From Candidatus Aenigmatarchaeota archaeon (GTDB taxonomy: Archaea > Aenigmatarchaeota > Aenigmatarchaeia > Aenigmatarchaeales > JACQIB01): a DNA stretch of 31,062 nucleotides. The stretch is from NCBI GenBank assembly GCA_046760225.1, contig JBHIDR010000005.1, positions 1 through 31,062 of the forward strand. The letters are read 5' to 3'. Of the stretch, positions 1-29,802 are shown piece by piece (within the stretch, counting starts at the first letter, position 1; the number at the start of each line of letters is the position of its first letter). The notes beneath the pieces are model-generated. The model saw only the letters and a program-made list of their open reading frames with translations. It did not search any database and had not been told where the DNA came from. Position numbers and translations under genes: made by a program.

Positions 1-309
1 AGATGTCCATGTGACGCTGCTATTTGCCAACTTTATGCTGTCCCAGCCGTCTGTAAATTCTGTTCCTGTAGGTGCATAGCAGCTTATGTTGCTGTTGTAA
101 ACGTCTCCAGCGCCATTGGCATCATTTACTATAGCTGAAACCCAGAAGCTTGTAGCTGGATTTACTGTTGAACTCTGGAAGCTTATTGATTCAACTGTAG
201 GTGCAACATTGCTAGGTGTTCCTTGAGTTGTTACATCCGTTGCTATGGCTATACCTGATATCAGGAGAAGGCCTGATATTATTGTTACTATTATTCTTTT
301 ATTCATCAT
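1..309 (-). CDS. Secreted/cell-surface protein, N-terminal part only (runs off the left edge)
   Basis: Manual translation MMNKRIIVTIISGLLLISGIAIATDVTTQGTPSNVAPTVESISFQSSTVNPATSFWVSAIVNDANGAGDV...; Sec-type signal peptide, S/T/N-rich, NIS and NSS sequons, strong SD GAGGAAGGAGG; absent from the ORF track. Confidence 0.8.
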   Translation of the reverse strand, partial: MMNKRIIVTIISGLLLISGIAIATDVTTQGTPSNVAPTVESISFQSSTVNPATSFWVSAIVNDANGAGDVYNSNISCYAPTGTEFTDGWDSIKLANSSVTWTS

Positions 310-323
310 CCTCCTTCCTCTTT

Positions 324-366
324 TTGTAATATTTTGGGTTACATTTTGTAATAGAAATTACTACAA
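324..366. promoter_or_regulatory. Two tandem candidate operator sites (TTGTAATA-N5-TATTACAA family)
   Basis: ttgtaata-ttttg-ggttacat at 324-344 and ttgtaata-gaaat-tactacaa at 346-366, 22 bp apart, between the TATA box and start of the 1..309 gene. Confidence 0.7.
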
Positions 367-370
367 GGTT

Positions 371-408
371 CCATATAAATGTTTGGGTCGGCACCGAAAG
401 CTTTATAA
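371..408. promoter_or_regulatory. Divergent BRE-TATA promoters
   Basis: Plus strand accgaaagCTTTATAA at 393-408; minus strand cccaaacATTTATAT at about 373-387. Confidence 0.7.
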
Positions 409-421
409 TGCGCTAATTTAA

Positions 422-442
422 TTGTAATATAGAGTCATACAA
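422..442. promoter_or_regulatory. Candidate operator site (TTGTAATA-N5-TATTACAA family)
   Basis: ttgtaata-tagag-tcatacaa, starting 20 bp after the TATA start, upstream of the V4R gene. Confidence 0.65.
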
Positions 443-459
443 TTAGGGGTTGTCCAAGG

Positions 460-933
460 ATGAGAGTGATTGAAAGGGATGTGAAGGAACTCGTGAATGG
501 TACGAGATTCTACAACGGCAATCTAGATAATGTGGTCGATGTGAGGGTTTTAAGGTCATTGAGCAACTCAATACTGGGGACACAGACCAGGGGCGAAGAA
601 ACACTGTATTTCTGCGGCAAGCTCATAGGAAGCGAGTTTGGCAGGAATTTTAAAGCAAAGAATGTTGATGATGCTATAACGTCAGTCAATGAACTAATGA
701 AAAGGCTCAATCTGGGCCATGTCAAACGTGCTGTCAGAAAAGGCAGAAGGCTGCTGATTGATGTGAAGGACTGCCCGTTGTGCGATCCAGGGAAAGACAG
801 GAGATGCTATTTTTCTGCTGGTATTCTGGCTGGTATGCTTTCCCGGACTCTAAAAAGGAATGTTGTTGGAAAGGAAACAGACTGCAAGAACAAGAAAAGA
901 GATATCTGTACCTTTGAATTGAAGTTTATATAA
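460..933 (+). CDS. V4R (4-vinyl reductase) domain protein
   Basis: LYFCGKLIG helix, DCPLC, CYFSAGILAG, ETDCx7CTFEL C-terminal Zn motif. Confidence 0.85.
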   Translation: MRVIERDVKELVNGTRFYNGNLDNVVDVRVLRSLSNSILGTQTRGEETLYFCGKLIGSEFGRNFKAKNVDDAITSVNELMKRLNLGHVKRAVRKGRRLLIDVKDCPLCDPGKDRRCYFSAGILAGMLSRTLKRNVVGKETDCKNKKRDICTFELKFI

Positions 934-1018
934 AATTACCACTTTATTATCCTTAATTTGCCCAAAAATCAGATTTATATATTATTGTATAGATATTTGT
1001 TTAAAAGGACGATTTGGT

Positions 1019-1339
1019 ATGAAAAGGGTACACAAGGGTCTGAGGGTTCTTGGCCTGACTGACCTTGAGGCAAGAGTCTATCTGAAACTCCTGGAGATGA
1101 AAAGGGCAAGGGTTACAAGGCTCGCAAAGGAGGTCAAGGTCACGCGTACGCAGCTTTATCCTCTTCTTGAAAAGATGGTAGAGAAAGGTTATGTGAAAAG
1201 GGTAGAAAAGAGCCCTGCAGTATATGCTGTTGTGGAGCCTGAAAAAATGGAAAGGATGTTGCAGAAATGGCTTAAGGAGCAGACCAAGCTCGTGAAGGAA
1301 GTGCAGAATTTCCTTAAGAAGTCAAAGAAAGGTAAATGA
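1019..1339 (+). CDS. TrmB-family wHTH transcriptional regulator, short form (DNA-binding domain plus coiled helix)
   Basis: LGLTDLEARVYLKLL, RTQLYPLLEKMVEKGYV, PAVYAVVEPE. Confidence 0.9.
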   Translation: MKRVHKGLRVLGLTDLEARVYLKLLEMKRARVTRLAKEVKVTRTQLYPLLEKMVEKGYVKRVEKSPAVYAVVEPEKMERMLQKWLKEQTKLVKEVQNFLKKSKKGK

Positions 1340-1389
1340 TTACTTCTTTTACGGCCCATCGTTACGTATTTATTCTTTTCTGTTCATGT

Positions 1390-1414
1390 TATTGTAATAT
1401 AATGTATTACAATA
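1390..1414. promoter_or_regulatory. Perfect inverted repeat, candidate operator upstream of the second TrmB gene
   Basis: tattgtaata-taatg-tattacaata (10-bp arms, 5-bp spacer) directly before a TTTAAG TATA-like box. Confidence 0.75.
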
Positions 1415-1461
1415 TTTAAGAATGTTGAATGTTATATTATAAGATATCAGGGGGTAAAGAC

Positions 1462-1785
1462 ATGAAAAAGCAAAGGCGTGTTAAAAGGGTCTTACGGGTG
1501 GTAGGACTAACGAATCTTGAAGCAGATGTATGTGTCAAGCTTCTTGAGATGAAACAGACCAGAGTAACGAAACTTGCCCGAAAAACAGGTGTCACAAGAA
1601 CCCAGCTCTATCCTCTTCTGGAGAAATTACTTGAGAAGGGCTTTGTAAAACGGATAGAAGATAGACCAACGATATATTCTGTTGTAGAACCTGAGAAGAT
1701 AGCAGCAATTCTGGAAAGGTGGATAAAAGAGCAAACCGCGCTAATCAGGGAAGCACAAAAGGTACTCAAAAAGATAAAGAGGTGA
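1462..1785 (+). CDS. TrmB-family wHTH regulator, short form, paralog of 1019..1339
   Basis: VGLTNLEADVCVKLL, VTRTQLYPLLEKLLEKGFV, PTIYSVVEPE; start placed at ATG 1462 (SD GGGGGT) rather than 1429. Confidence 0.9.
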   Translation: MKKQRRVKRVLRVVGLTNLEADVCVKLLEMKQTRVTKLARKTGVTRTQLYPLLEKLLEKGFVKRIEDRPTIYSVVEPEKIAAILERWIKEQTALIREAQKVLKKIKR

Positions 1786-2247
1786 TTATTTCCTTCTCAC
1801 AGCAAATACGCACGTATTCCTTTTGCTGTTTTTGAATCTCACGAACTTGCCAAAATAGTTCTTCCCACTTATTTCAGTAGCCATTCCTGCTATTATACCA
1901 AGCATAAAATAACAGTTTTTACTATTTCTTCTTTTCTTGTAGAAAACACAGTCATCAATATCAAGCGTTATCATGTCCTTTTTGACCCTTATTCCAGCTA
2001 TGTTACCTATGTTCAACTTTCTAAGAGTATATTTTAGTATGTCTATAATATTGTTCTTGGGATGTTTCTTGATATGGTTACTTACTATTCTTTCTCCTAT
2101 GAACTTTCCTGAGAAATATATTATCTCATGGCCATTGGCCTGTGTTTCGAGTATTGAGTCATTGAGCATATGGAGCAGGGATATGTCTATCTTTTTGTAA
2201 CCTTTGCTGAAAAGAGACCTTATGCTGTCATCTATATCGTAGGCCAT
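1786..2247 (-). CDS. V4R domain protein, paralog of 460..933
   Basis: NDSILETQANGHEIIYFSGKFIG aligns with SNSILGTQTRGEETLYFCGKLIG; CYFMLGIIAG; C-terminal CVF. Confidence 0.8.
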   Translation of the reverse strand: MAYDIDDSIRSLFSKGYKKIDISLLHMLNDSILETQANGHEIIYFSGKFIGERIVSNHIKKHPKNNIIDILKYTLRKLNIGNIAGIRVKKDMITLDIDDCVFYKKRRNSKNCYFMLGIIAGMATEISGKNYFGKFVRFKNSKRNTCVFAVRRK

Positions 2248-2318
2248 GTCAACACTATTTTTTTATTGAATGGGGGCGTATAAAATACTATATGGACATT
2301 TTTTCTGCTTATTTACCC

Positions 2319-2349
2319 TAAAAAAAGAAAAAGGGTGACAAAGTCACCC
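2319..2349 (-). terminator. Hairpin plus T-tract terminator of the beta-propeller gene
   Basis: gggtgac-aaa-gtcaccc at 2333-2349 overlapping the stop codon, followed on the minus strand by TTTTTCTTTTTTTT. Confidence 0.65.
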
Positions 2350-3831
2350 AATTACATTAACTATATCACTGCCTTCGAATGGTGTTTCTCCAACCATCCC
2401 TGTTATTGTTATTTCCACTGCTTCTCCTGTGTCCAGTATGCCTATGACCTCTTTTCTGTCGAATTTCACCATCAGGTCCTTGATTCCATCGCCATCATGG
2501 TCTCCTATGTTCGTAGGACCACTTGAGGGAACTGTGCCTTCCAGCAAAAGGGACGATGTGTCTAACCAGGAAGGATCATAGCCATCAACTTCTATGTATG
2601 CTGTAATCCATTTCCCTTTGCTCTTCTTGTTTATTGTATCCGGGTCTATATCTATTGTTATGTCTGTTACATTGTCCACATGCCCGAATACAAATACGCT
2701 AGTATTTGTTCCTACAAACAGCCTGTCATTTTCCACCATTGGGGACGATTCACTCGTATAGCCTGTCTCGTAGTCCCAGATAAGGGATCCTGTGCTTTCG
2801 CTCAGCACATAGACATGGCCGTCAACTGAGTTCACTATCACTTTTCCATCTGATATGGCTGGTGATGACTTCACATCATCTGCTGTTATATAACTCCATA
2901 ACAAATCGCCTGTTGTTGAATTAAATGCATAGACTTTGTTGTCATTGGAGCCTATATAGAGTACTCCTGTATTCCTGTTGACAGCAGGTGAGGATATAAC
3001 TACGTCACCTGTTGTATAGTTCCATAGCAGGTTACCATTGTTTCTGTTCAATGCATATAGCTGCCCATCTAATGAGCCAACAAATACCGTTTCGATATTT
3101 TCTCTGACCATGGGAGTTGATATTATATCTCCGTTTGTTTCAAAGTCCCACAAAGGCGCTCCTGTTGATGAATTGAGTGCATAGAGCTTCCTGTCTGAAG
3201 AGCCGACAAATACCATTCCGCTTTCATGTATAACTGGGGATGATATCACAGCCCCGCCTGTTGTAAAGCTCCATTCAAGTGTGCCGCTTGAACTCAAGGC
3301 GTATACATTTCCGTCACCAGATCCGAAATATACCATACCGCTTCCTGGTATTGTTGCTGGTGATGACTCAACATCGCCTCCTGTAGTATAGCTCCATAGT
3401 ATGTTCCCATCGAGTTTGTTTAATGCGTACAGCTTGTTTCCAGAACCTACGTACAGATGCCCTGTGCTGTTGTCCAAGAGTGGTGTAGACTTTGTACCAA
3501 TTCCAAGGTATTGCGCCCATAGCAAATCCCGTGTTATGTCGTCGAACGCATATATGTAGCCGTCATTCGAAGCCACGAACAGGGTCCCGTATGTGTGCTC
3601 GATATCTGTGTCATATATGGGAGCTGAAAAGTCCACTCCAACGTCATACTCCCACATGAGCTGCGCAGTCTCTGGTATATCGCACGTTGCGAATCCGCTA
3701 CGATGCCAGTTGTGCTGGAACATAGCCCATGTTCCACCCCCCTCACACGCAAATACTATCCCTGAACCGACTAAAACGAAAGAAATTGTCAGTACAGAGA
3801 ATATAGCCAGTAGATATTTGTTTTTTAACAT
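2344..3831 (-). CDS. Secreted PQQ-like (BamB-type) beta-propeller repeat protein
   Basis: Signal peptide, WAMFQHNWHRSG, about 8 repeats of SSP...VYxGSxDGxVYAL...GxLLW; C-terminal domain with a DHDGDG Ca-binding-like motif. Confidence 0.9.
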   Translation of the reverse strand: MLKNKYLLAIFSVLTISFVLVGSGIVFACEGGGTWAMFQHNWHRSGFATCDIPETAQLMWEYDVGVDFSAPIYDTDIEHTYGTLFVASNDGYIYAFDDITRDLLWAQYLGIGTKSTPLLDNSTGHLYVGSGNKLYALNKLDGNILWSYTTGGDVESSPATIPGSGMVYFGSGDGNVYALSSSGTLEWSFTTGGAVISSPVIHESGMVFVGSSDRKLYALNSSTGAPLWDFETNGDIISTPMVRENIETVFVGSLDGQLYALNRNNGNLLWNYTTGDVVISSPAVNRNTGVLYIGSNDNKVYAFNSTTGDLLWSYITADDVKSSPAISDGKVIVNSVDGHVYVLSESTGSLIWDYETGYTSESSPMVENDRLFVGTNTSVFVFGHVDNVTDITIDIDPDTINKKSKGKWITAYIEVDGYDPSWLDTSSLLLEGTVPSSGPTNIGDHDGDGIKDLMVKFDRKEVIGILDTGEAVEITITGMVGETPFEGSDIVNVIG

Positions 3832-3928
3832 AAACAATAGATGGTCGATATCAATCCTTAAACATGTTTGGAAGCTTTTATTTAGAAAATGTCCAAACTT
3901 TTAAATTGATATTTTCATAATTTATAAT

Positions 3929-5149
3929 ATGGTTCTTAACAGATATGATAATAAGCTCTTGGAATTCATGTACCTCTTAACGAAGAAGCAGAAACACATG
4001 AATTCAATAGAAATAGCGAGATACCTCTCCTCTCACGGCAAGAAGATAACTGACAGAACCATCAGAAGGTGGTTTCATTATCTCCATAAGTATCATTTCG
4101 ATTATTTTCCGTATCCGAAATATGGGACACTGGGCTTAGTTCCTATATTTACATTGGTGGAATTCAATGAAAAATTGTTAGAAGTATTGCCTTATAGGCT
4201 ATCAATTATATACGGTATTAACTTTCAAGACTTTGAAAGGTGCTTAATCAATACCCACTTAATACCGACTAACCATCTGAATGATTTTAAAGCATTATGC
4301 TCAGAGGCCTCGGAATATGGAATTTTTAAGAAATATTTTATTTTCGATTCAGCTGTCGCCTTTTTTTCACCGTTTCATAAGATATTCAAAAGGGATGGTC
4401 TTGTTGAATTTCCAGAAAATTATGACATCGACAATTCTTATTTTACAGGACTGTTAAGAAATTGTCTTCAAAGTGATAAAAGTAATAGGTTAGAGAAAGA
4501 AGTAAAAGAGAATCCTCTAATAATTCCTATAATCCTTGAATATTTCAGGGAACATAGGTCATCACACGGGGTCTGGAACTCATTTAGAAGAAAATTAGGA
4601 GACGGGGTCTGGGGATATGTGAAGGATCCTAAGATCAGGAGATTAAAGAAAAAAGGTAGTGGAATAAGACTAATACAAAAAACCATGAAGGAGCTTCATG
4701 ACAATTTCCATGAATTCTTCCAACAAATAAGAGTAGTATATTATCCCTTCTATGCTCATGAAAACAACATATTTTACATGTTCTTGAAATTAAAAAGAAA
4801 AAACGACATAATACCGCTTTCAGAAGCTCTTTCGAAGCATTCTGTTTCAATTGTGGTATATCCTCCCATGAATCCAAAAAGTAAAGAGATAGCTTATTAT
4901 ATTCTCACCAATAAGAAAGAGACCTTGAACATAATAAGCAACTTAATCCACCCATATATTGACAAATCATATGATAACAAGATAATTTACGAGGATTTCG
5001 AAGCTTCAATGAAGTATAGGGGCCCAAAATCATATCATTGGCGCAAATACTATCTTAGGTCTAATTATCACAGGCTATTTAATCCGAAAACTGTGACATG
5101 GAAATTTGATATAGAAAAATACAAGAAGAGATTGTACAAGCTGAAATAG
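3929..5149 (+). CDS. Putative transcriptional regulator with N-terminal wHTH (Lrp-like tandem architecture), AT-rich
   Basis: SIEIARYL...ITDRTIRRWFHYL HTH followed by PKYGTLGLVPIF; divergent from the propeller gene. Confidence 0.6.
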   Translation: MVLNRYDNKLLEFMYLLTKKQKHMNSIEIARYLSSHGKKITDRTIRRWFHYLHKYHFDYFPYPKYGTLGLVPIFTLVEFNEKLLEVLPYRLSIIYGINFQDFERCLINTHLIPTNHLNDFKALCSEASEYGIFKKYFIFDSAVAFFSPFHKIFKRDGLVEFPENYDIDNSYFTGLLRNCLQSDKSNRLEKEVKENPLIIPIILEYFREHRSSHGVWNSFRRKLGDGVWGYVKDPKIRRLKKKGSGIRLIQKTMKELHDNFHEFFQQIRVVYYPFYAHENNIFYMFLKLKRKNDIIPLSEALSKHSVSIVVYPPMNPKSKEIAYYILTNKKETLNIISNLIHPYIDKSYDNKIIYEDFEASMKYRGPKSYHWRKYYLRSNYHRLFNPKTVTWKFDIEKYKKRLYKLK

Positions 5150-5154
5150 CATGC

Positions 5155-5424
5155 TTATTCTTTCTTGGCAAACTTCTTCATGTAGATTATGACCACAAGG
5201 AGTATGATCATGAGTATGAGAAGTATCCATGATGTCATCAGGGGGACCTCACCAGGCTCTATTTCTTCAAGGCGGTGCACTTCTTCCATGGTAGGTCCTG
5301 AGAGGAGGTAGCCTGTGATTCCTGGTGCTACAAGTGTCACTAGAATACCATACACTAGGACAGCCACCAGGCATGCTTCAAGGAATATTGTTAAGGTTTC
5401 TGCGCTCCTTTTAAATTGTAACAT
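5155..5424 (-). CDS. Small two-TM membrane protein
   Basis: Two hydrophobic segments flanking an acidic loop; basic C-tail KKFAKKE. Confidence 0.7.
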   Translation of the reverse strand: MLQFKRSAETLTIFLEACLVAVLVYGILVTLVAPGITGYLLSGPTMEEVHRLEEIEPGEVPLMTSWILLILMIILLVVIIYMKKFAKKE

Positions 5425-5436
5425 ACAATATTACAA
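5416..5436. promoter_or_regulatory. Candidate operator site (TTGTAATA-N5-TATTACAA family)
   Basis: ttgtaaca-tacaa-tattacaa overlapping the start codon of 5155..5424, 20 bp downstream of the minus-strand TTTAAGTA start. Confidence 0.7.
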
Positions 5437-5463
5437 TATTCATTTTATTACTTAAATCTTTGC

Positions 5464-6876: not shown

Positions 6877-6922
6877 ATAACTTTATATGGAGGCTTAATA
6901 AATAAAGATTAGGTGAAAACAA

Positions 6923-7892: not shown

Positions 7893-8603
7893 CTAGCTTC
7901 TCTGCTTTATTGTGAATTCGGGATAGACCACTATTCCCTTGTTAGTGATCCTGTACTCCACAAGCGATTTCCTGTGGGATGCCCCCCTCATCTTCCTTAT
8001 GGAAATCGCGTTCTTGTAGTACTTGTCAAAGGAGATGTTGTTCGTGAGTGTTATCACGCCGTCCACAACGAACTCCTCAAAGCCATACCAGCTAATGTCA
8101 GAGGAGCCTTCCCTGACCTCTGTTGTAAGAACAGATGTGCATCCAAGGTTGCTCAGCATGTCCGTGAGCGTAAGGAGCGCCCTCCTCCTTTGCTCCTCGT
8201 TCTTGAAGAGCATCAGGAAGAGGTTTATGGAATCTATGGCAACCCTCTTGATTCTCTTCTGCCTTATCACTTCCCCTATCTCATCAAGGAAGTCCCTGGG
8301 CTTTGCCTTTACCTTGTCCTGGAACCTCATTATGTCTGCCATGGAGCCGCCTATCAATGTGAGCCTTTTGTTCCTCTTGATGTCCATGCCCACGGAAAGC
8401 ATGTCATTTGTCATTTTTTTCTTGTTCTGCTCCAGGGTTATGAAAAGGCCGTTCTCCCCTTTCTGTGTGCCAGCATGAACGAACTGCATGGCCAGGGTGG
8501 TCTTGCCTGTACCAGTTACACCTGATACAAGTATTACCTTTCCTGGCAAAAACCCGCCATTAAGCAGCTTGTTAAGGCCCCTTATTCCCGTGTCAACCTT
8601 CAT
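7893..8603 (-). CDS. Single-domain KaiC/RAD55-like RecA-superfamily ATPase
   Basis: TGIRGLNKLLNGGF, Walker A GVTGTGKT, FITLEQ, Walker B VAIDS, EEFVVDGVI, RKMRG. Confidence 0.92.
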   Translation of the reverse strand: MKVDTGIRGLNKLLNGGFLPGKVILVSGVTGTGKTTLAMQFVHAGTQKGENGLFITLEQNKKKMTNDMLSVGMDIKRNKRLTLIGGSMADIMRFQDKVKAKPRDFLDEIGEVIRQKRIKRVAIDSINLFLMLFKNEEQRRRALLTLTDMLSNLGCTSVLTTEVREGSSDISWYGFEEFVVDGVITLTNNISFDKYYKNAISIRKMRGASHRKSLVEYRITNKGIVVYPEFTIKQRS

Positions 8604-8604
8604 G

Positions 8605-9153
8605 TCATCCCCTCAGTATCCTTTTCACCCTCCTCCTTTGCAGCCTGGCAACAGTACCGCTGGCAAATCCTGAAAAATGAAAAATGTCTGTCTTCAATAC
8701 ATTATTTAAGGCAACTCCACCCATAAAAAAGTTTGCTATGGACAGGGAAAATATGAAGACCGTGAATAGCGGCAGTGTTATTTTCTGTGAAATGAAGTTC
8801 CTTGCCTTGGAAAGTGTTGCTGCCAGGACCCCGTATATGCCTGTTGAGTTCCCGGCAATCACTGCACCAGGGAAAAATGAAAGCACAGGCACTGCTATGA
8901 AGACCGCCAAGAGATATACCATGAGGAAGCTCTCGAACTTCATGTCCAGCTCAACTGCTATGCCAGCAACAAAGGCAAGGCCTATGATGTTCTCAACAAG
9001 GTGAAGGAGGCTGAAATGCATGAACTGGAAGGAGAGCAGCTGGTAGACCTGGAAATCAGTGAAGCTCAGGGCAAAAACATCAGCTGACAGGGTGAAGAAG
9101 CATGCTATGTTTATGAGGACAACTGCAAGCGTGAATATCACTATCTTGTTCAT
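8605..9153 (-). CDS. Rhomboid family intramembrane serine protease
   Basis: FMHFSLLHLVEN (HxxxxHxxxN), AGNSTGIYG (catalytic Ser), HFSGFASG (catalytic His). Confidence 0.8.
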   Translation of the reverse strand: MNKIVIFTLAVVLINIACFFTLSADVFALSFTDFQVYQLLSFQFMHFSLLHLVENIIGLAFVAGIAVELDMKFESFLMVYLLAVFIAVPVLSFFPGAVIAGNSTGIYGVLAATLSKARNFISQKITLPLFTVFIFSLSIANFFMGGVALNNVLKTDIFHFSGFASGTVARLQRRRVKRILRG

Positions 9154-9157
9154 GGTA

Positions 9158-9313
9158 TCACTCTTTACTGTTGTTTTCCATCTTCTTCTTTATCTTTTCA
9201 TATCTCAGCACTGATTTCTTCAGTTTTTTCTTCTCCCTTCTTATGTACAAGAAGAAGGTTGCCAGTGCAGCAATGCTGCCTACGCCGAGTGCAAGCAGTG
9301 CAATATCAGTCAT
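9158..9313 (-). CDS. Small single-TM protein (51 aa)
   Basis: Manual translation MTDIALLALGVGSIAALATFFLYIRREKKKLKKSVLRYEKIKKKMENNSKE; ATGA overlap with the upstream gene, ends 4 nt before the rhomboid start. Confidence 0.75.
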   Translation of the reverse strand: MTDIALLALGVGSIAALATFFLYIRREKKKLKKSVLRYEKIKKKMENNSKE

Positions 9314-9540
9314 TTTCTAGCACCCACCTTGGCATTCCTTACCTTCACGATTATGTAAAGAAACATTGACAGTGCCAGTATTATGAAAAGGCCTGATGAA
9401 AGGCCCACTGAATTCAGCGAAGAGCCGATTGGCAGCGCAAAGTTGCTGAATGCAAGGGAGATTATAAGGAACACTGCCACTATTGAAGAGAAATACATCA
9501 AAAAGCTCTCAATTACGGTTTCCCGTCTTTTCTTTTTCAT
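9310..9540 (-). CDS. Small two-TM membrane protein
   Basis: Basic N-terminus, two hydrophobic helices, basic C-terminus; first gene of the minus-strand operon. Confidence 0.75.
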   Translation of the reverse strand: MKKKRRETVIESFLMYFSSIVAVFLIISLAFSNFALPIGSSLNSVGLSSGLFIILALSMFLYIIVKVRNAKVGARK

Positions 9541-9665
9541 GAATATAATTTCGTGAATAACTTATTTAAATATATCAATTACTGTGCTGGTCCTGCACAA
9601 GCACAGCAAAAGTCCTTCCCTTACTTAATGATGGCTTTAAATCCTTATTTTTTCAATTTTTTATT

Positions 9666-10058
9666 ATGAATACTCTTTATAAAATGCTTGTAATAGTCAT
9701 TGCAGGCGCCATGTTCATACTTGCCCATGAAGGAGGGCATTACCTGGCAGCTGCGAGCTTTGGCCTGGACCCCCAGGTCGCGCTTGAAGGCCCTAGCACA
9801 GCACTGGCAGGATTCTCAGTGGGGGTCACGCATATGCCCACCACTGCCCTGCAGGACACCATCATAGTCATGGGTGCATACGTGCTTCCGCTCTCCCTTG
9901 CGCTTGGCTTTATTCTGCTGTACAGCTGGAAAAAAAGGGAAGAATTCTGGCTTCTGGCTGCAATACTGATCATCCTGGTGGCGGTCACGCTCATGCCAAT
10001 ACCAGGAGCCTATCAGGTGGATGCAAACAGGATATTTTCAATACTTCTGGGCTTCTAA
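9666..10058 (+). CDS. Small M50/site-2-protease-like membrane zinc metallopeptidase
   Basis: HEGGH in TM1, GVT strand, IVMGAY, TLMPIPGAYQVDA resembling the NxxP...DG third-ligand motif. Confidence 0.65.
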   Translation: MNTLYKMLVIVIAGAMFILAHEGGHYLAAASFGLDPQVALEGPSTALAGFSVGVTHMPTTALQDTIIVMGAYVLPLSLALGFILLYSWKKREEFWLLAAILIILVAVTLMPIPGAYQVDANRIFSILLGF

Positions 10059-10699: not shown

Positions 10700-10734
10700 G
10701 GCTCTTTATTTAGAAGGCTGAAATATAAAGTTTT

Positions 10735-11398: not shown

Positions 11399-12448
11399 AT
11401 GGCTAAAAAGAGGGCTAAAAGGAAGATAAAAAAGAAGGCAAGAAGGAAGGTCAAGAGGGCCAAGGCAAAGAAGCCTGTGAAGGCTATACGAAGGCGTGTT
11501 CTCAAGCCTGTTAAGAGGGCAGCCAAGGGCAAAAAAATAAAGAAATGCCCTGAATGCGGTTGCGGTCATTTTTTTGAGGACGAATCAAGAGGAGAAAAGG
11601 TATGCGCCAAGTGCGGGCTTGTTCTTGAGGAGTCAATTGTTGATGCTTCTCCTGAATGGAGGGCCTTTGACAGTAATCAGAGGACAAAGAGGACCAGGGC
11701 AGGAGCTCCGCTGACCTTTACAAAGCATGACAAAGGACTGACCACAGAGATCGGCCGTGGAAAAGGAGAGCTCTTCAGGGTAGCACCCTCAAAGAGGGCA
11801 CAGTACCACAGGCTGAAAATATGGCAGAAAAGGCTCGTGGAATCAAAGGACAGGAACCTTTCCTTTGCACTGAGCGAGCTGCAGAGGCTTGTTTCCTTTC
11901 TAGGACTTCCCAAGAAAGTACATGAGGAGGTTGCAAAGAAGTATGAGCAGGCTGTTGACCGCGGACTCGTAAGAGGCAGGTCAATGGAGTCTGTTATTGC
12001 ATCACTGCTCTATGCAGTGTGCAGGGAAATGGGAACACCCAGGACACTCGAGGAAATAGCTGAGGCATCCGGTGTCGAGAGAAGGGAGATAGGAAGGACC
12101 TACAGGTACATTGCAAGGGAGCTGAAGATAAGGATACTGCCTGCGCCTCCGCAGGACTATGTTCCGAGGTTCGCCTCAATGCTCGGTCTTTCTGACAAGG
12201 TCCAGGCAAGGGCAATACAGTACCTCAGGGAAGCCAAGAAGAACGAGGTTACTTCTGGTAAAGGACCTACCGGTGTGGCAGCTGCTGCACTTTACATCGC
12301 TGCTGTTCTTGAAGGCGAGAAGAGGACCCAGAGGGAGATAGCAGATGCAATAGGGGTAACAGAGGTCACAATCAGGAACAGGTTCAAGGAGCTTGTAGAG
12401 AAGCTCGGCATTGAAGAGGAAGTCGAGAAGAGGGTCAAGGAGGATTAA
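11399..12448 (+). CDS. tfb: Transcription initiation factor B with K/R-rich N-terminal extension
   Basis: Zn ribbon CPECG...CAKCG, B-reader PEWRAF, cyclin repeats RGRSMESV and GKGPTGVAAAALY, TEVTIRNR; SD GGTGA before ATG 11399. Confidence 0.97.
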   Translation: MAKKRAKRKIKKKARRKVKRAKAKKPVKAIRRRVLKPVKRAAKGKKIKKCPECGCGHFFEDESRGEKVCAKCGLVLEESIVDASPEWRAFDSNQRTKRTRAGAPLTFTKHDKGLTTEIGRGKGELFRVAPSKRAQYHRLKIWQKRLVESKDRNLSFALSELQRLVSFLGLPKKVHEEVAKKYEQAVDRGLVRGRSMESVIASLLYAVCREMGTPRTLEEIAEASGVERREIGRTYRYIARELKIRILPAPPQDYVPRFASMLGLSDKVQARAIQYLREAKKNEVTSGKGPTGVAAAALYIAAVLEGEKRTQREIADAIGVTEVTIRNRFKELVEKLGIEEEVEKRVKED

Positions 12449-20672: not shown

Positions 20673-21113
20673 TCATTCTTCGATAAAAATCAGTTCTCCC
20701 TCATTTCTTGGGCATACTTTCCTGACATCCCCGTTCTTATAGCTTATCTCCTTCTCTATGCACCATTGTTTGTAGCATTTTCTGCTAATTGGGCATAAAT
20801 CAGAGGTGCCGTAATATGGGGACTTTAATGACCTGTGTATCTTCTTTATGCCTCTCTCCAGCCCCTTTTTGCTAAATGTTGACTGCAGACGCTGCTGAAC
20901 AGAGCGGTGCATTTTTTCTGGAAAATCCAGCCTGTTAAAGATTGCATTAGTTGTATAGAAATGGTCCTTGTTCTTGTCAAGGAGCTCTCTCTTGATAAAG
21001 CTTATTGCCTCTTCTATGTCATCATCACTGTACCACGTCTTGTCATCTATGATAAATTTCTTCTTTGTGCGCTCAACAGCTTCCTTTATTTTATTTCCCA
21101 AGCTTTCTTGCAT
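20673..21113 (-). CDS. Hypothetical protein with C-terminal Cys cluster
   Basis: CPISRKCYKQWC...VCP; fills the gap between L35Ae and the KaiC-like gene. Confidence 0.6.
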   Translation of the reverse strand: MQESLGNKIKEAVERTKKKFIIDDKTWYSDDDIEEAISFIKRELLDKNKDHFYTTNAIFNRLDFPEKMHRSVQQRLQSTFSKKGLERGIKKIHRSLKSPYYGTSDLCPISRKCYKQWCIEKEISYKNGDVRKVCPRNEGELIFIEE

Positions 21114-21163
21114 GCAAAAACATTACGCATAAACTTTTAAATATTCAAAGGTTAATTGTGCTT

Positions 21164-21916
21164 ATGGCAAGGAAAATGAAAAAGAAAGTTGCAAAAAGGG
21201 GGGTAAAAAAGAAGACCAGAAAGAAACGTTCTGTTGAAAGAATTCCTACTGGAATAAAGGGCCTTGACAGGTTCATGAAGGGCGGTTTGATAAAGGGCAC
21301 AACAACGCTCCTTACTGGTTCCACAGGAACAGGCAAGACCATATTCTGCACCCAGTTCATTCTCGAGGGGCTCAGGAAAAAGGAGAAGTGCCTTTTCATC
21401 ACAATGGAAGAAAGAGTGGAAGACATAATAAATGATGTCAAGGAGTTCAAATGGGACCTCCGGAAGCATATGGACTCTGGACTGCTCATACTGGAGTACA
21501 GGGACCCCTTCCAGCTTGCAAACCTTGCTGAAAAGCTAGCAGAGAGGATAAAGAAGAACAAGATACAGAGGGTGGTGATTGATTCCACTTCTCTCTTCGG
21601 CCTGTATTTCAAGGACCCGTTTGATGTGAGGAAACAGCTCTTCAACCTGATGGCAAAGCTCAAGTCATCAGGAGCAACAACCATTCTCACATCTGAGATG
21701 CCTGAAGCAGACCACATGCTATCGCGCTTCGGCGTAGAGGAATACATCACTGACAACGTAATAATACTGAACTACCTGGGAGTCGGAGGAGTCTATGGAA
21801 GGTCGTTGTCAATAAGGAAGATGAGAAGGACTGACCATGGAAAGGATGTCTATCCGCTGAAGATAGGAAAGAGGGGAATAGAGATCAGGGGAGCTGAAAG
21901 AGGCATCAAGCTTTAG
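21164..21916 (+). CDS. Single-domain KaiC/RAD55-like ATPase with Lys-rich N-tail
   Basis: RIPTGIKGLD, GSTGTGKT, FITMEE, VVIDS, SRFGVEEYITD, RKMRRTDH; start at ATG 21164. Confidence 0.92.
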   Translation: MARKMKKKVAKRGVKKKTRKKRSVERIPTGIKGLDRFMKGGLIKGTTTLLTGSTGTGKTIFCTQFILEGLRKKEKCLFITMEERVEDIINDVKEFKWDLRKHMDSGLLILEYRDPFQLANLAEKLAERIKKNKIQRVVIDSTSLFGLYFKDPFDVRKQLFNLMAKLKSSGATTILTSEMPEADHMLSRFGVEEYITDNVIILNYLGVGGVYGRSLSIRKMRRTDHGKDVYPLKIGKRGIEIRGAERGIKL

Positions 21917-22448
21917 AAACATCAAAAGCACAATACTTGTCCCCACAGGCAATGCACTTGCTTTCTACGACCTTGACCTTGGAGCCGAAAATAACAGTGA
22001 AGTGCTCCTTTATTAGGCCTTTCAACCAGAAATCTATTGGCTTCTTGCTGTTGTTCTTGTGGAGCATCAGCCATTTGGTTGGTAAGGTGCTTTCCCTTAC
22101 AATGACCTGCGCTGACCTGTTTTTCATGCTCATCCTGCTCACCTCTATCATGCCCCATCCTGTACTGTTGAGTATCTTTGTTGTGAAGTCCATTATCTTG
22201 CTCTTGGACAATTCAGAAAAGTTGTAGCGCTTGAGGTATCTTTTTGCTGCAGCCTCAACCTGGTACCTGCCCATCTCCTCCAACAATTTCCCTGTCTTTT
22301 TTCTGCCGAGCTTCTTAAGAAGCACATCATACATATGGACAACTACGCCCGACGGAAAGAGCAGCACGTATTCTCCAAGCATCCTGATGTGCCCTTCCTC
22401 AAAGGTGAACTGGCCTGTCTGCATCAGTTTTGTCAAAAACCTGCTCAT
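21906..22448 (-). CDS. V4R (XylR_N/4VR) domain protein
   Basis: EEGHIRMLGE, TGWGMIE, ESKCIACGDKYCAFDV. Confidence 0.85.
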   Translation of the reverse strand: MSRFLTKLMQTGQFTFEEGHIRMLGEYVLLFPSGVVVHMYDVLLKKLGRKKTGKLLEEMGRYQVEAAAKRYLKRYNFSELSKSKIMDFTTKILNSTGWGMIEVSRMSMKNRSAQVIVRESTLPTKWLMLHKNNSKKPIDFWLKGLIKEHFTVIFGSKVKVVESKCIACGDKYCAFDVSKA

Positions 22449-28785: not shown

Positions 28786-29598
28786 TTATCTGCGCCTTTT
28801 CTTAGAAATCATCTTCTCAAGTGGTATTGCATGCTTCCATACAGAGAAGAAGTATCTCTTGAAAACATCAGCAATGATTTTGTTGCTGATTATCATACTT
28901 GAGATATCATACTCGCGATCCCCTCTTTTGCCGTATTTCTGTACAACATACACCTTTTTACTGTCAGTTATTATGGCCCTGAGGGTTATTCCTGGGCTGA
29001 AGCGCAGTTCAGCGCCCAATTTAAGTGCTTTTTTCGCACGCTGCAGAACATCAGCTTCCTTCTTGCTGAAGATTATCCTGTATTTTATTCCCCTCTTAAT
29101 CATGCGCTTGATTTCAGCTGCCTTCTTGTCAACCCATGAAAGATCGCCTGCAAAGGAGAGGAACTCCTCCTTTGTGGTGGACTCAAATTCCTTCCACACG
29201 GTATCAATGTTTACCTTCTGTTTCACCTGCGCCAGAACCTCCTCCCTTTCCTCAGCAACTGACTTTGGCATATGTTCAACTGCCTTCATAAACTGCGGCA
29301 CAATTTCCTGCAGGGATTTTATTCTTGCCTCCATCCTTTTCTTTTCGTCCTCCCTGAGTATGTCAAATATCTTTTTGGGATCAACCACCCTGAATGTCTG
29401 GGGCCTTGTTTTTGAAACAAATATGAGGCCTTTCGAAGCAAGAGATGACATTGTATCATAAACCCTTGGAAGCGGTATCCTTCCGAGGGATGATATCTTG
29501 TCCGCTGTTAGTGTCCCTCTCTTTATGAGAGTGACATAAGCCTTTGCTTCGTACTCTGTCAAGCCAAGATGCTTGAGCAATGCTTCAGCCTCTTCCAT
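28786..29598 (-). CDS. Full-length TrmB-family regulator (wHTH plus C-terminal effector domain)
   Basis: LGLTEYEAKAYVTL, IPLPRVYDTMSSLASKGL, RPQTFRVVDP, IITDSKKV. Confidence 0.93.
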   Translation of the reverse strand: MEEAEALLKHLGLTEYEAKAYVTLIKRGTLTADKISSLGRIPLPRVYDTMSSLASKGLIFVSKTRPQTFRVVDPKKIFDILREDEKKRMEARIKSLQEIVPQFMKAVEHMPKSVAEEREEVLAQVKQKVNIDTVWKEFESTTKEEFLSFAGDLSWVDKKAAEIKRMIKRGIKYRIIFSKKEADVLQRAKKALKLGAELRFSPGITLRAIITDSKKVYVVQKYGKRGDREYDISSMIISNKIIADVFKRYFFSVWKHAIPLEKMISKKRRR

Positions 29599-29691: not shown

Positions 29692-29802
29692 ATACAATAG
29701 CCATTAAGACTCGTACAAACGAATAACTATTAGCATTTAAATACTTGTGGATTTATATATTTATTACCAATAGAAAGTAAAATTAGGGTGAAATGGGTGT
29801 TA

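Follow-up and report, generated by a model that had tools for sequence, protein, structure and literature searches.

Five copies of a 21-bp dyad, TTGTAATA-N5-TATTACAA, lie in a 31062-bp stretch of contig JBHIDR010000005.1 from an uncultured archaeon of the Candidatus Aenigmatarchaeota (hereafter the window), close to the genes for two short TrmB-family proteins that we call TrmB-1 and TrmB-2. Judged by comparative sequence analysis, the dyad is probably the operator of a minimal subfamily of TrmB regulators to which both proteins belong, with autoregulation and mostly repressive effects. It would most likely be a gene switch of ordinary type within an unstudied subfamily of proteins. To our knowledge, operators are known for a very small number of archaeal regulators, hardly any of them from uncultured lineages. 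The pairing proposed here is clean and testable, as it joins an invariant recognition helix to an invariant GTA half-site core and to targets that include surface or secreted proteins.

A non-random dyad in intergenic DNA

The motif was searched as 21 bp with 16 specified bases and up to three mismatches. This returned copies at 324..344, 346..366, 422..442, 1392..1412 and 5416..5436, with 3, 1, 2, 0 and 1 mismatches respectively, exactly where a first-pass annotation of this DNA had placed them. A tighter 19-nt version of the motif recovered the identical five copies and no others in the window. Copy 1 reads TTGTAATA ttttg GGTTACAT; copy 4 is perfect, and its arms extend to 10 bp (1390-1399 and 1405-1414) as that annotation had described. 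All five copies fall inside intergenic DNA, which makes up 9% of the window (2813 of 31062 bp, 34% GC), with copy 5 also overlapping the first 9 nt of an 89-residue open reading frame (ORF).

Dinucleotide shuffling of the whole window gave a mean of 0.13 matches, and five were reached in 0 of 100 shuffles. When only the intergenic DNA was shuffled (2813 bp, with segments extended by 10 nt) the mean was 0.114 and the maximum 3, with five copies reached in 0 of 2000, so that the excess over shuffled AT-rich intergenic DNA presupposed by the earlier operator proposal is borne out. Because the motif had been defined after inspecting the sequence, all 514 dyad families in the window (8-mer halves, spacers of 0-12, each seeded by a near-perfect palindrome) were ranked as a correction, each being scored as the sum of (4 - mismatches) over its copies. 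The dyad ranked first of the 514 with a score of 13. The best family in any of 183 shuffled windows scored 9 or less, and 13 was reached in none of them. Some caution is needed with bare counts, since other families also reach 5-7 copies at up to three mismatches; what is exceptional about the dyad is the quality and placement of its copies, not their number.

These figures bear directly on whether the dyads merely reflect chance similarity of AT-rich promoter DNA, or promoter modules that have been copied without having a dedicated binder. The low GC content of the intergenic DNA and the loose matches of the other families favour chance, and copying is favoured by copies 4 and 5, which share extra flanking bases (77% similarity over 31 nt). 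With that exception the flanks and spacers vary between copies, indicating that the dyads are not copies of a longer repeat. Together with the shuffling results at both the intergenic and the family-wise level, and with the independent recurrence of the motif at a related locus described below, this leaves such an explanation barely credible.

To describe the site, a position weight matrix (PWM) was built from eight examples, five from the window and three from related loci, which together provide 16 half-sites. GTA is present in 16 of 16, preceded by T in 14 and followed by A, T and A in 14, 12 and 15 of them, and the central five bases are free. The half-site is therefore tTGTAATA, with a core of GTAATA-N5-TATTAC. 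In positional order the window copies score 23.4, 21.0, 23.5, 30.9 and 28.9. The next-best position in the 31 kb scores 11.2, and this gap (21-31 versus 11.2) marks the dyad as a discrete class. Beyond the five copies, the PWM scan of the window found no dyad above 11.2, and none in the promoters of TrmB-1, V4R-2, the propeller gene or the 406-residue ORF introduced below. The extent of the regulon was judged inside the 31-kb window.

An inverted repeat may also act as an RNA hairpin in a leader or 3' end instead of as a DNA site. The dyads do fold slightly better than shuffled sequences (-4.6 to -8 kcal/mol, z -1.5 to -3.1), and three of them are predicted to be at least partly transcribed. 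However, the stems are weak and AT-rich, copies 1-3 carry 1-3 uncompensated arm mismatches, and copy 4 lies upstream of its TATA box. The invariance of GTA across the half-sites is a signature of sequence read-out, and the half-site bases are kept even where the arms no longer pair, which argues for base read-out by a protein and makes a hairpin function highly improbable. A search for a known RNA element was likewise negative, with no Rfam match in the window and only weak folds.

Position of the dyads at predicted promoters

Within its first 7 kb the window encodes the N-terminus of a secreted protein, V4R-1, TrmB-1, TrmB-2, V4R-2, a secreted beta-propeller of the pyrroloquinoline quinone (PQQ) type, a 406-residue ORF, an 89-residue membrane protein and a CCA-adding enzyme. 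Many genes in the window carry AAAnCTTTATATA about 27-32 nt ahead of their ATG (distances counted by eye), which fits leaderless or short-leader transcripts; in archaea these are expected to begin some 27-30 nt downstream of the first T in the TATA box. With TATA boxes about 27-32 nt before leaderless ATGs, the predicted transcription starts fall inside the dyads.

Copy 3 begins 20 nt after the first T (402) of the inferred TATA box of V4R-1, TTTATAAT (402..409, plus strand), and lies over the predicted start at about 429-433. The box is preceded by GAAAGC, and the combined string of TATA box and transcription factor B recognition element (BRE) is identical to that of the TFB gene promoter. 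Copy 5 begins (5436) 20 nt after the first T (5456, minus strand) of TTTAAGTA (5449..5456), the inferred TATA box of the 89-residue protein, and covers the predicted start of that gene; the 20-nt distance claimed earlier for these two copies is thus reproduced. CAAAGA precedes this box, which lies 32 nt ahead of the ATG and so implies a leaderless mRNA. For the secreted-protein gene the predicted box is TTTATATGG (371..379, minus strand), which fits the common AAAnCTTTATATA pattern and is preceded by CCAAACA. Copy 2 starts 13 nt past the first T of this box (379) and lies over the predicted start of the gene. Copy 1 is located deeper in the predicted 5' leader, ahead of the strong Shine-Dalgarno sequence GGAAGGAGG. 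The starts of these two left-hand copies (324 and 346) are 22 bp apart, again as first described.

Copy 4 is arranged differently. It ends 2 nt before a candidate TATA box of TrmB-2, TTTAAGAA (the TTTAAG box, 1415..1422, plus strand), and so would cover the BRE position of the TrmB-2 promoter. This assignment is ambiguous, as a second candidate box, TTATATTA, lies at 1432 on the plus strand; its use would mean a leaderless transcript and would put copy 4 about 20 nt upstream of the promoter TATA.

Four of the five dyads thus appear to sit over or just downstream of a predicted start, the classical position for repression, with the TrmB-2 copy ambiguous. In a review of the TrmB family (PMC4158304), regulators of this family are described as binding palindromes at the BRE/TATA or at +1 and as regulating their own genes, with sites downstream of TATA repressing and sites upstream activating. 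The statement in the first-pass annotation that every copy lies at a promoter holds in the sense that all five are intergenic and beside TATA-like boxes, and in that sense only. Its suggestion of repression suits four copies, but the fifth abuts the BRE/TATA from upstream and could either repress or activate.

A minimal TrmB subfamily

TrmB-1 (106 residues, 1019..1339, plus strand) and TrmB-2 (107 residues, 1462..1785, plus strand) are 62% identical and share the same recognition helix, VTRTQLYPLLEK, as had been claimed. Both are recognised by the Pfam TrmB profile (PF01978) with 67.0 and 61.4 bits against a cut-off of 25.6 (1.4e-18 for TrmB-1). The AlphaFold model of TrmB-1 has a predicted local distance difference test score (pLDDT) of 89 and consists of a winged helix followed by one long C-terminal helix (74-104). 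Residues 7-104 of Pyrococcus furiosus TrmB (3qph), comprising its DNA-binding domain and coiled-coil helix, align with the profile of the short proteins. Helix 74-104 falls on the coiled-coil region, from which dimerisation is predicted. Within the recognition helix, Tyr47 lies opposite Tyr50 of P. furiosus TrmB and Pro48 replaces Asp51; Y50 and D51 form the DNA-contact pair of that protein (PMC4158304, in the sections available).

Both proteins stop at 106 and 107 residues and have no effector (sugar-binding) domain. A C-terminal domain of this kind is a feature of TrmB, TrmBL1 and VNG1451C; it defines the sugar-sensing members and not the Pfam family. The structural neighbours of the TrmB-1 model are the 99-residue ST1889 (the best match, with a template modelling (TM) score of 0.66-0.70), which we take to be Lrs14-like, together with MarR-type dimers and the N-terminus of TrmBL2 (TM 0.69). 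Among NCBIfam models the best match of the short proteins is to the N-terminus of TrmBL1 (6e-11). Matches to Lrs14 and Sta1 profiles are weak, those to the Lrs14 model NF040939 reaching 26.5 and 28.3 bits against a cut-off of 90, and the MreA model gave no match to the short proteins at E up to 0.01.

A homologue search of 5.8 billion proteins identified 27 members of the subfamily, including the two from the window; all the others are metagenomic. All 27 carry an unchanged TRTQLYPLLEK, and from this invariance a conserved operator is predicted. With a winged helix, a coiled coil and no effector domain, the subfamily appears to be smaller than any characterised TrmB member. A full-text literature search found no report of a GTAATA-N5-TATTAC motif, of TrmB proteins of about 105 residues or of a TrmB-V4R pairing.

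We propose that a TrmB-1/TrmB-2 homo- or heterodimer would bind the dyad, placing one VTRTQLYPLLEK helix in each half-site. At the secreted-protein gene, at V4R-1 (probably together with TrmB-1 behind it) and at the 89-residue protein gene, the bound dimer would block recruitment of RNA polymerase and so repress transcription. Binding at copy 4, over the BRE position, would allow TrmB-2 to regulate its own gene, with the sign of this effect uncertain.

Related loci

At least 13 loci with TrmB homologues were scanned for comparable sites, three of them encoding the TRTQLYPLL helix and at least 10 encoding other helices. The most informative is L001, a 3.8-kb contig from an uncultured archaeon, on which a minus-strand secreted-protein gene, a 159-bp spacer, a 102-residue TrmB gene and a convergent V4R gene (Pfam 4.5e-11) follow one another, repeating the arrangement of the window; the TrmB and secreted-protein genes are divergent. 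This TrmB (52% identical) has the same recognition helix and is one of the 27 subfamily members. The spacer contains two strong dyads, tcGTAATAttaatTATTACaa and aTGTAATAtatgtTATTACAc, which flank a palindromic TATA, with one of them covering the predicted start of the secreted-protein gene. Scored with a PWM made from the window sites only, they reach 18.3 and at least 12 and are the sole positions on the contig to attain 12. Two core matches arose in 1 of 20000 shuffles of the spacer.

At a second locus, L002, the helix (as ITRTQLYPLL) is part of a 385-residue TrmB whose C-terminus has a marginal DUF2378 match only. Here CGTAATA-N5-TGTTACA lies between 22 and 4 nt upstream of the GTG start codon. 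The first T of a TATA box precedes its first base by 29 nt, and a match of this quality occurred in 71 of 20000 shuffles. The L002 evidence is suggestive only, as the site stands out by the core-mismatch test and not by PWM score. By the same core-mismatch test, the 10 or more loci whose TrmB has another helix showed nothing comparable in the 300 bp that precede the TrmB gene; 2 core matches occurred in their 156722 bp, neither adjoining a TrmB gene. The assignment of the dyad as predicted operator of the short TrmB proteins, first put forward from the window by itself, therefore gains independent comparative support from L001 and weaker support from L002.

These loci also help to judge whether the dyads, as genuine operators, could belong to another regulator, with the short TrmB genes being mere targets. 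Candidates for such a binder are a third TrmB-family protein encoded in the window (270 residues, TrmBL2-like, 28786-29598, minus strand), the 406-residue ORF (3929-5149, plus strand), which has a marginal N-terminal winged-helix match (0.014), or a factor encoded outside the window. As regulators often sit among their own targets, the proximity of the short TrmB genes is in itself suggestive only. Against this, the recognition helix of the third TrmB, IPLPRVYDTMSS, is unlike that of the short proteins; the 3.8 kb of L001 hold dyads and a short TrmB but no relative of either the 406-residue protein or the third TrmB; and at L002 the dyad again accompanies the TRTQLYPLL helix, there in a differently built protein. 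We therefore regard a different binder as unlikely. From a match to the TrmBL2 model along its entire length (3.2e-18, far under the cut-off), the 270-residue protein may be a chromatin-type TrmB.

A further alternative keeps the same protein and the same sites and differs in the sign of regulation, with activation as the main effect, for example at TrmB-2 and at the L001 TrmB gene. Copy 4 is upstream of its TATA and abuts it (or precedes it by about 20 nt with the 1432 box), at L001 the TATA closest to the TrmB start lies 55-110 bp downstream of the dyads, and TrmBL1 and Tgr are described as activating when their motif lies upstream of the BRE/TATA (PMC4158304, in the sections available). In contrast, four sites in the window, one in L001 and the one in L002 lie between TATA and start codon, over the predicted start, a position that points to repression. 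Predominant activation is accordingly an option to which we assign a low probability.

Several observations weigh against an autoregulated repressive operator and temper our preference for it. The gap upstream of TrmB-1 (934-1018, 85 bp) has a good TATA and no dyad, so that the dyads could control TrmB-1 only via read-through from V4R-1. At L001, the distance of the dyads from the TATA nearest the TrmB start means that autoregulation by occlusion is not evident there. All the transcription starts used here are predictions. Independent replication comes mainly from one locus, L001: the L002 site scores 4.7 with the window-only PWM, and unrelated loci score up to 5.0 upstream of their TrmB genes. 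At L003, the third locus with the TRTQLYPLL helix, the 370 bp between the TrmB gene and the next gene contain no dyad, but the TrmB gene is truncated by the contig start and the DNA upstream of it is absent, making this locus uninformative. Finally, the scan covered 31 kb, and the regulon may be wider, or a different, unlinked binder may exist.

The putative targets vary between loci. A tblastn search with 12 window proteins against the 13 or more loci retrieved relatives of TrmB and KaiC only, with no relative of the 89-residue membrane protein among them, and the similarity between the secreted N-terminus of the window and the L001 secreted protein was not significant (E 0.072). Short TrmB genes do adjoin very large secreted proteins rich in N-X-S/T sequons, of 1986 residues at L003 (520-6480) and more than 465 residues at L001 (2-1396). 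These neighbours echo the secreted-protein target in the window, with no detectable homology to it.

At another locus, L004, TTGTAAC-N7-GTGACAA (9951-9971) lies some 50 bp upstream of a TrmB homologue from Methanocellales whose helix reads VPRTRVYDIL. It shares the outer TTGT...ACAA with the operator, but its core and spacing differ and its PWM score is only 4.2. Chance may account for this dyad, or it may be a divergent relative of the operator.

Comparison with known systems

The closest parallel for the site is the Thermococcales glycolytic motif (TGM), TATCAC-N5-GTGATA, the operator of TrmBL1/Tgr (PMC4158304, in the sections available). The first-pass annotation had seen no resemblance between the two; this is correct for the sequence, as the half-site is GTAATA instead of TATCAC, but not for the layout, since both are inverted hexamers 5 nt apart (GTAATA-N5-TATTAC here) attributed to winged helices of the TrmB family. 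In the TrmBL1/Tgr system, too, the position of the site relative to TATA sets repression or activation and the regulator controls itself, according to the same sections of PMC4158304. The differences lie in the protein, which for TrmBL1 has 341 residues with a sugar-binding domain versus 106-107 without one here; in the targets, which there belong to sugar metabolism and here are secreted, membrane, V4R and TrmB genes; and in the lineage, Thermococcales there and an uncultured archaeon here. The hexamer-N5-hexamer geometry of the TGM thus seems to be kept with a change in the bases read, which would make this pairing useful for working out a recognition code of TrmB helices.

P. furiosus TrmB itself binds a TACT-N3-AGTA palindrome at the BRE/TATA of malE and represses by blocking polymerase recruitment (PMC4158304, in the sections available). 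It resembles the short proteins in having a coiled-coil helix after the winged helix (a dimer in P. furiosus, predicted here). The short proteins differ from it by the missing effector domain, by Pro48 in place of Asp51, and by another motif and spacing. Among small regulators with a DNA-binding domain only, MreA of Methanosarcina and Lrs14-type proteins are similar in kind. MreA, at 139 residues, is listed as the smallest TrmB member as of 2014, with no motif known, in the available sections of PMC4158304. EnfR, also considered, is assigned to the Tfx family (PMC10570040) and was hence set aside as not relevant.

V4R proteins as a possible signal input

As the short TrmB proteins lack an effector domain, we infer that any signal enters from elsewhere, and the neighbouring V4R proteins are by analogy the most plausible source. 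V4R-1 (157 residues, 460..933, plus strand) is a stand-alone V4R domain (Pfam 2.4e-09) with five cysteines (CPLC, RCYF, DCK, ICTF). It matches MJ1460 in the PDB (3.9e-13) and the C-terminal half of the NCBIfam MsvR model (1.1e-13; 51.5 bits, below the cut-off of 220). V4R-2 (153 residues, 1786..2247, minus strand), convergent with TrmB-2, is a divergent paralogue that has lost most of the cysteines kept in V4R-1. Its Pfam V4R match is only 0.055, that to the V4R half of the MsvR model is 2.6e-05, and a V4R-1 query retrieves it at 1.4e-15 (P0037). At the DNA level, 566-630 in V4R-1 and 2095-2159 in V4R-2 show an inverted similarity (65 nt, 75%), which identifies the two as duplicated genes in opposite orientation.

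MsvR is a methanogen repressor in which a helix-turn-helix (HTH) domain is fused to V4R; the V4R cysteines confer redox sensitivity on its DNA binding, and its target is an inverted repeat, TTCGN7-9CGAA, in its own or a divergent promoter (PMC3729527, in the sections available). General background on V4R is given in PMC2253512 and PMC5847659. The window likewise encodes a cysteine-bearing V4R and a putative winged-helix DNA binder, and V4R-1 and V4R-2 both match the V4R half of MsvR. Here, however, separate genes encode the HTH and V4R parts, the HTH belongs to the TrmB type and not the ArsR type, and the dyad does not match the MsvR operator.

A word search found 2 homologues of V4R-1 and an exhaustive search 57 representatives. 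The longer relatives among these (16 of the 57) were scanned; 4 are fusions of an ArsR-type HTH with V4R, and others carry GGDEF or SpoIIE output domains, so the V4R module is used as an input domain. The adjacency of TrmB and V4R genes recurs in L001. A search for longer homologues in which TrmB and V4R are fused gave one 384-residue protein with a TrmB annotation only, and no fusion.

It is possible, although we put this forward as a tentative idea that may well prove wrong, that a minimal TrmB and a stand-alone V4R form a split, MsvR-like sensor-regulator that controls cell-surface proteins. In such an arrangement the cysteine-rich V4R-1 would act as the sensor of redox state or of a small ligand, and the cysteine-poor V4R-2 might tune it. 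V4R would then dock on TrmB homo- or heterodimers and switch their binding to the GTAATA-N5-TATTAC operator. As far as we searched, the literature holds no description of trans-acting sensor subunits for an archaeal winged-helix repressor. If the V4R proteins are detachable sensor subunits, they would represent a new route for signals into archaeal transcription.

Other features of the window

The secreted protein is represented by its N-terminal 103 residues (1..309, minus strand), truncated by the window edge. It begins with the signal-peptide-like sequence MMNKRIIVTIISGLLLISGIAIA, and a Pfam scan of this fragment gave no family. The 89-residue protein (5155..5424, minus strand) is a predicted two-helix membrane protein of no known family. 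Between these putative dyad-controlled genes, the 406-residue ORF occupies a stretch of 33% GC, against a window mean of about 44%, and matches no Pfam or NCBIfam family; it may have been inserted from a foreign source. Elsewhere the window is clearly archaeal, with genes for TFB, histone, aIF5A, L35Ae and ArgRS.

The PQQ propeller gene follows V4R-2. It contains internal DNA repeats of 43-48 nt every 123-126 nt or so (2858-3398), reflecting the blade repeats of the protein. A GC-rich hairpin, GGGTGAC-AAA-GTCACCC (2331-2349), is found at the 3' end of the gene, overlaps the stop codon and looks like a terminator.

KaiC-like genes recur near V4R and TrmB genes. A third V4R protein in the window (21906-22448, XylR_N plus V4R) adjoins a gene for a KaiC-like ATPase (21065-21916), a further KaiC-like gene is found at 7893-8603, and at L002 KaiC-like genes lie on both sides of the long TrmB (7938-9800 and 11446-12177). 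There may be an association among KaiC, V4R and TrmB.

Another palindromic pair, CTTTATAT-N11-ATATAAAG, at 6881-6907, 10704-10730 and 29751-29777, had the fourth-highest score among the dyad families. The copy at 6881 is located between the divergent genes for the CCA-adding enzyme and an MscS-like protein, and looks like two back-to-back TATA boxes forming a bidirectional promoter.

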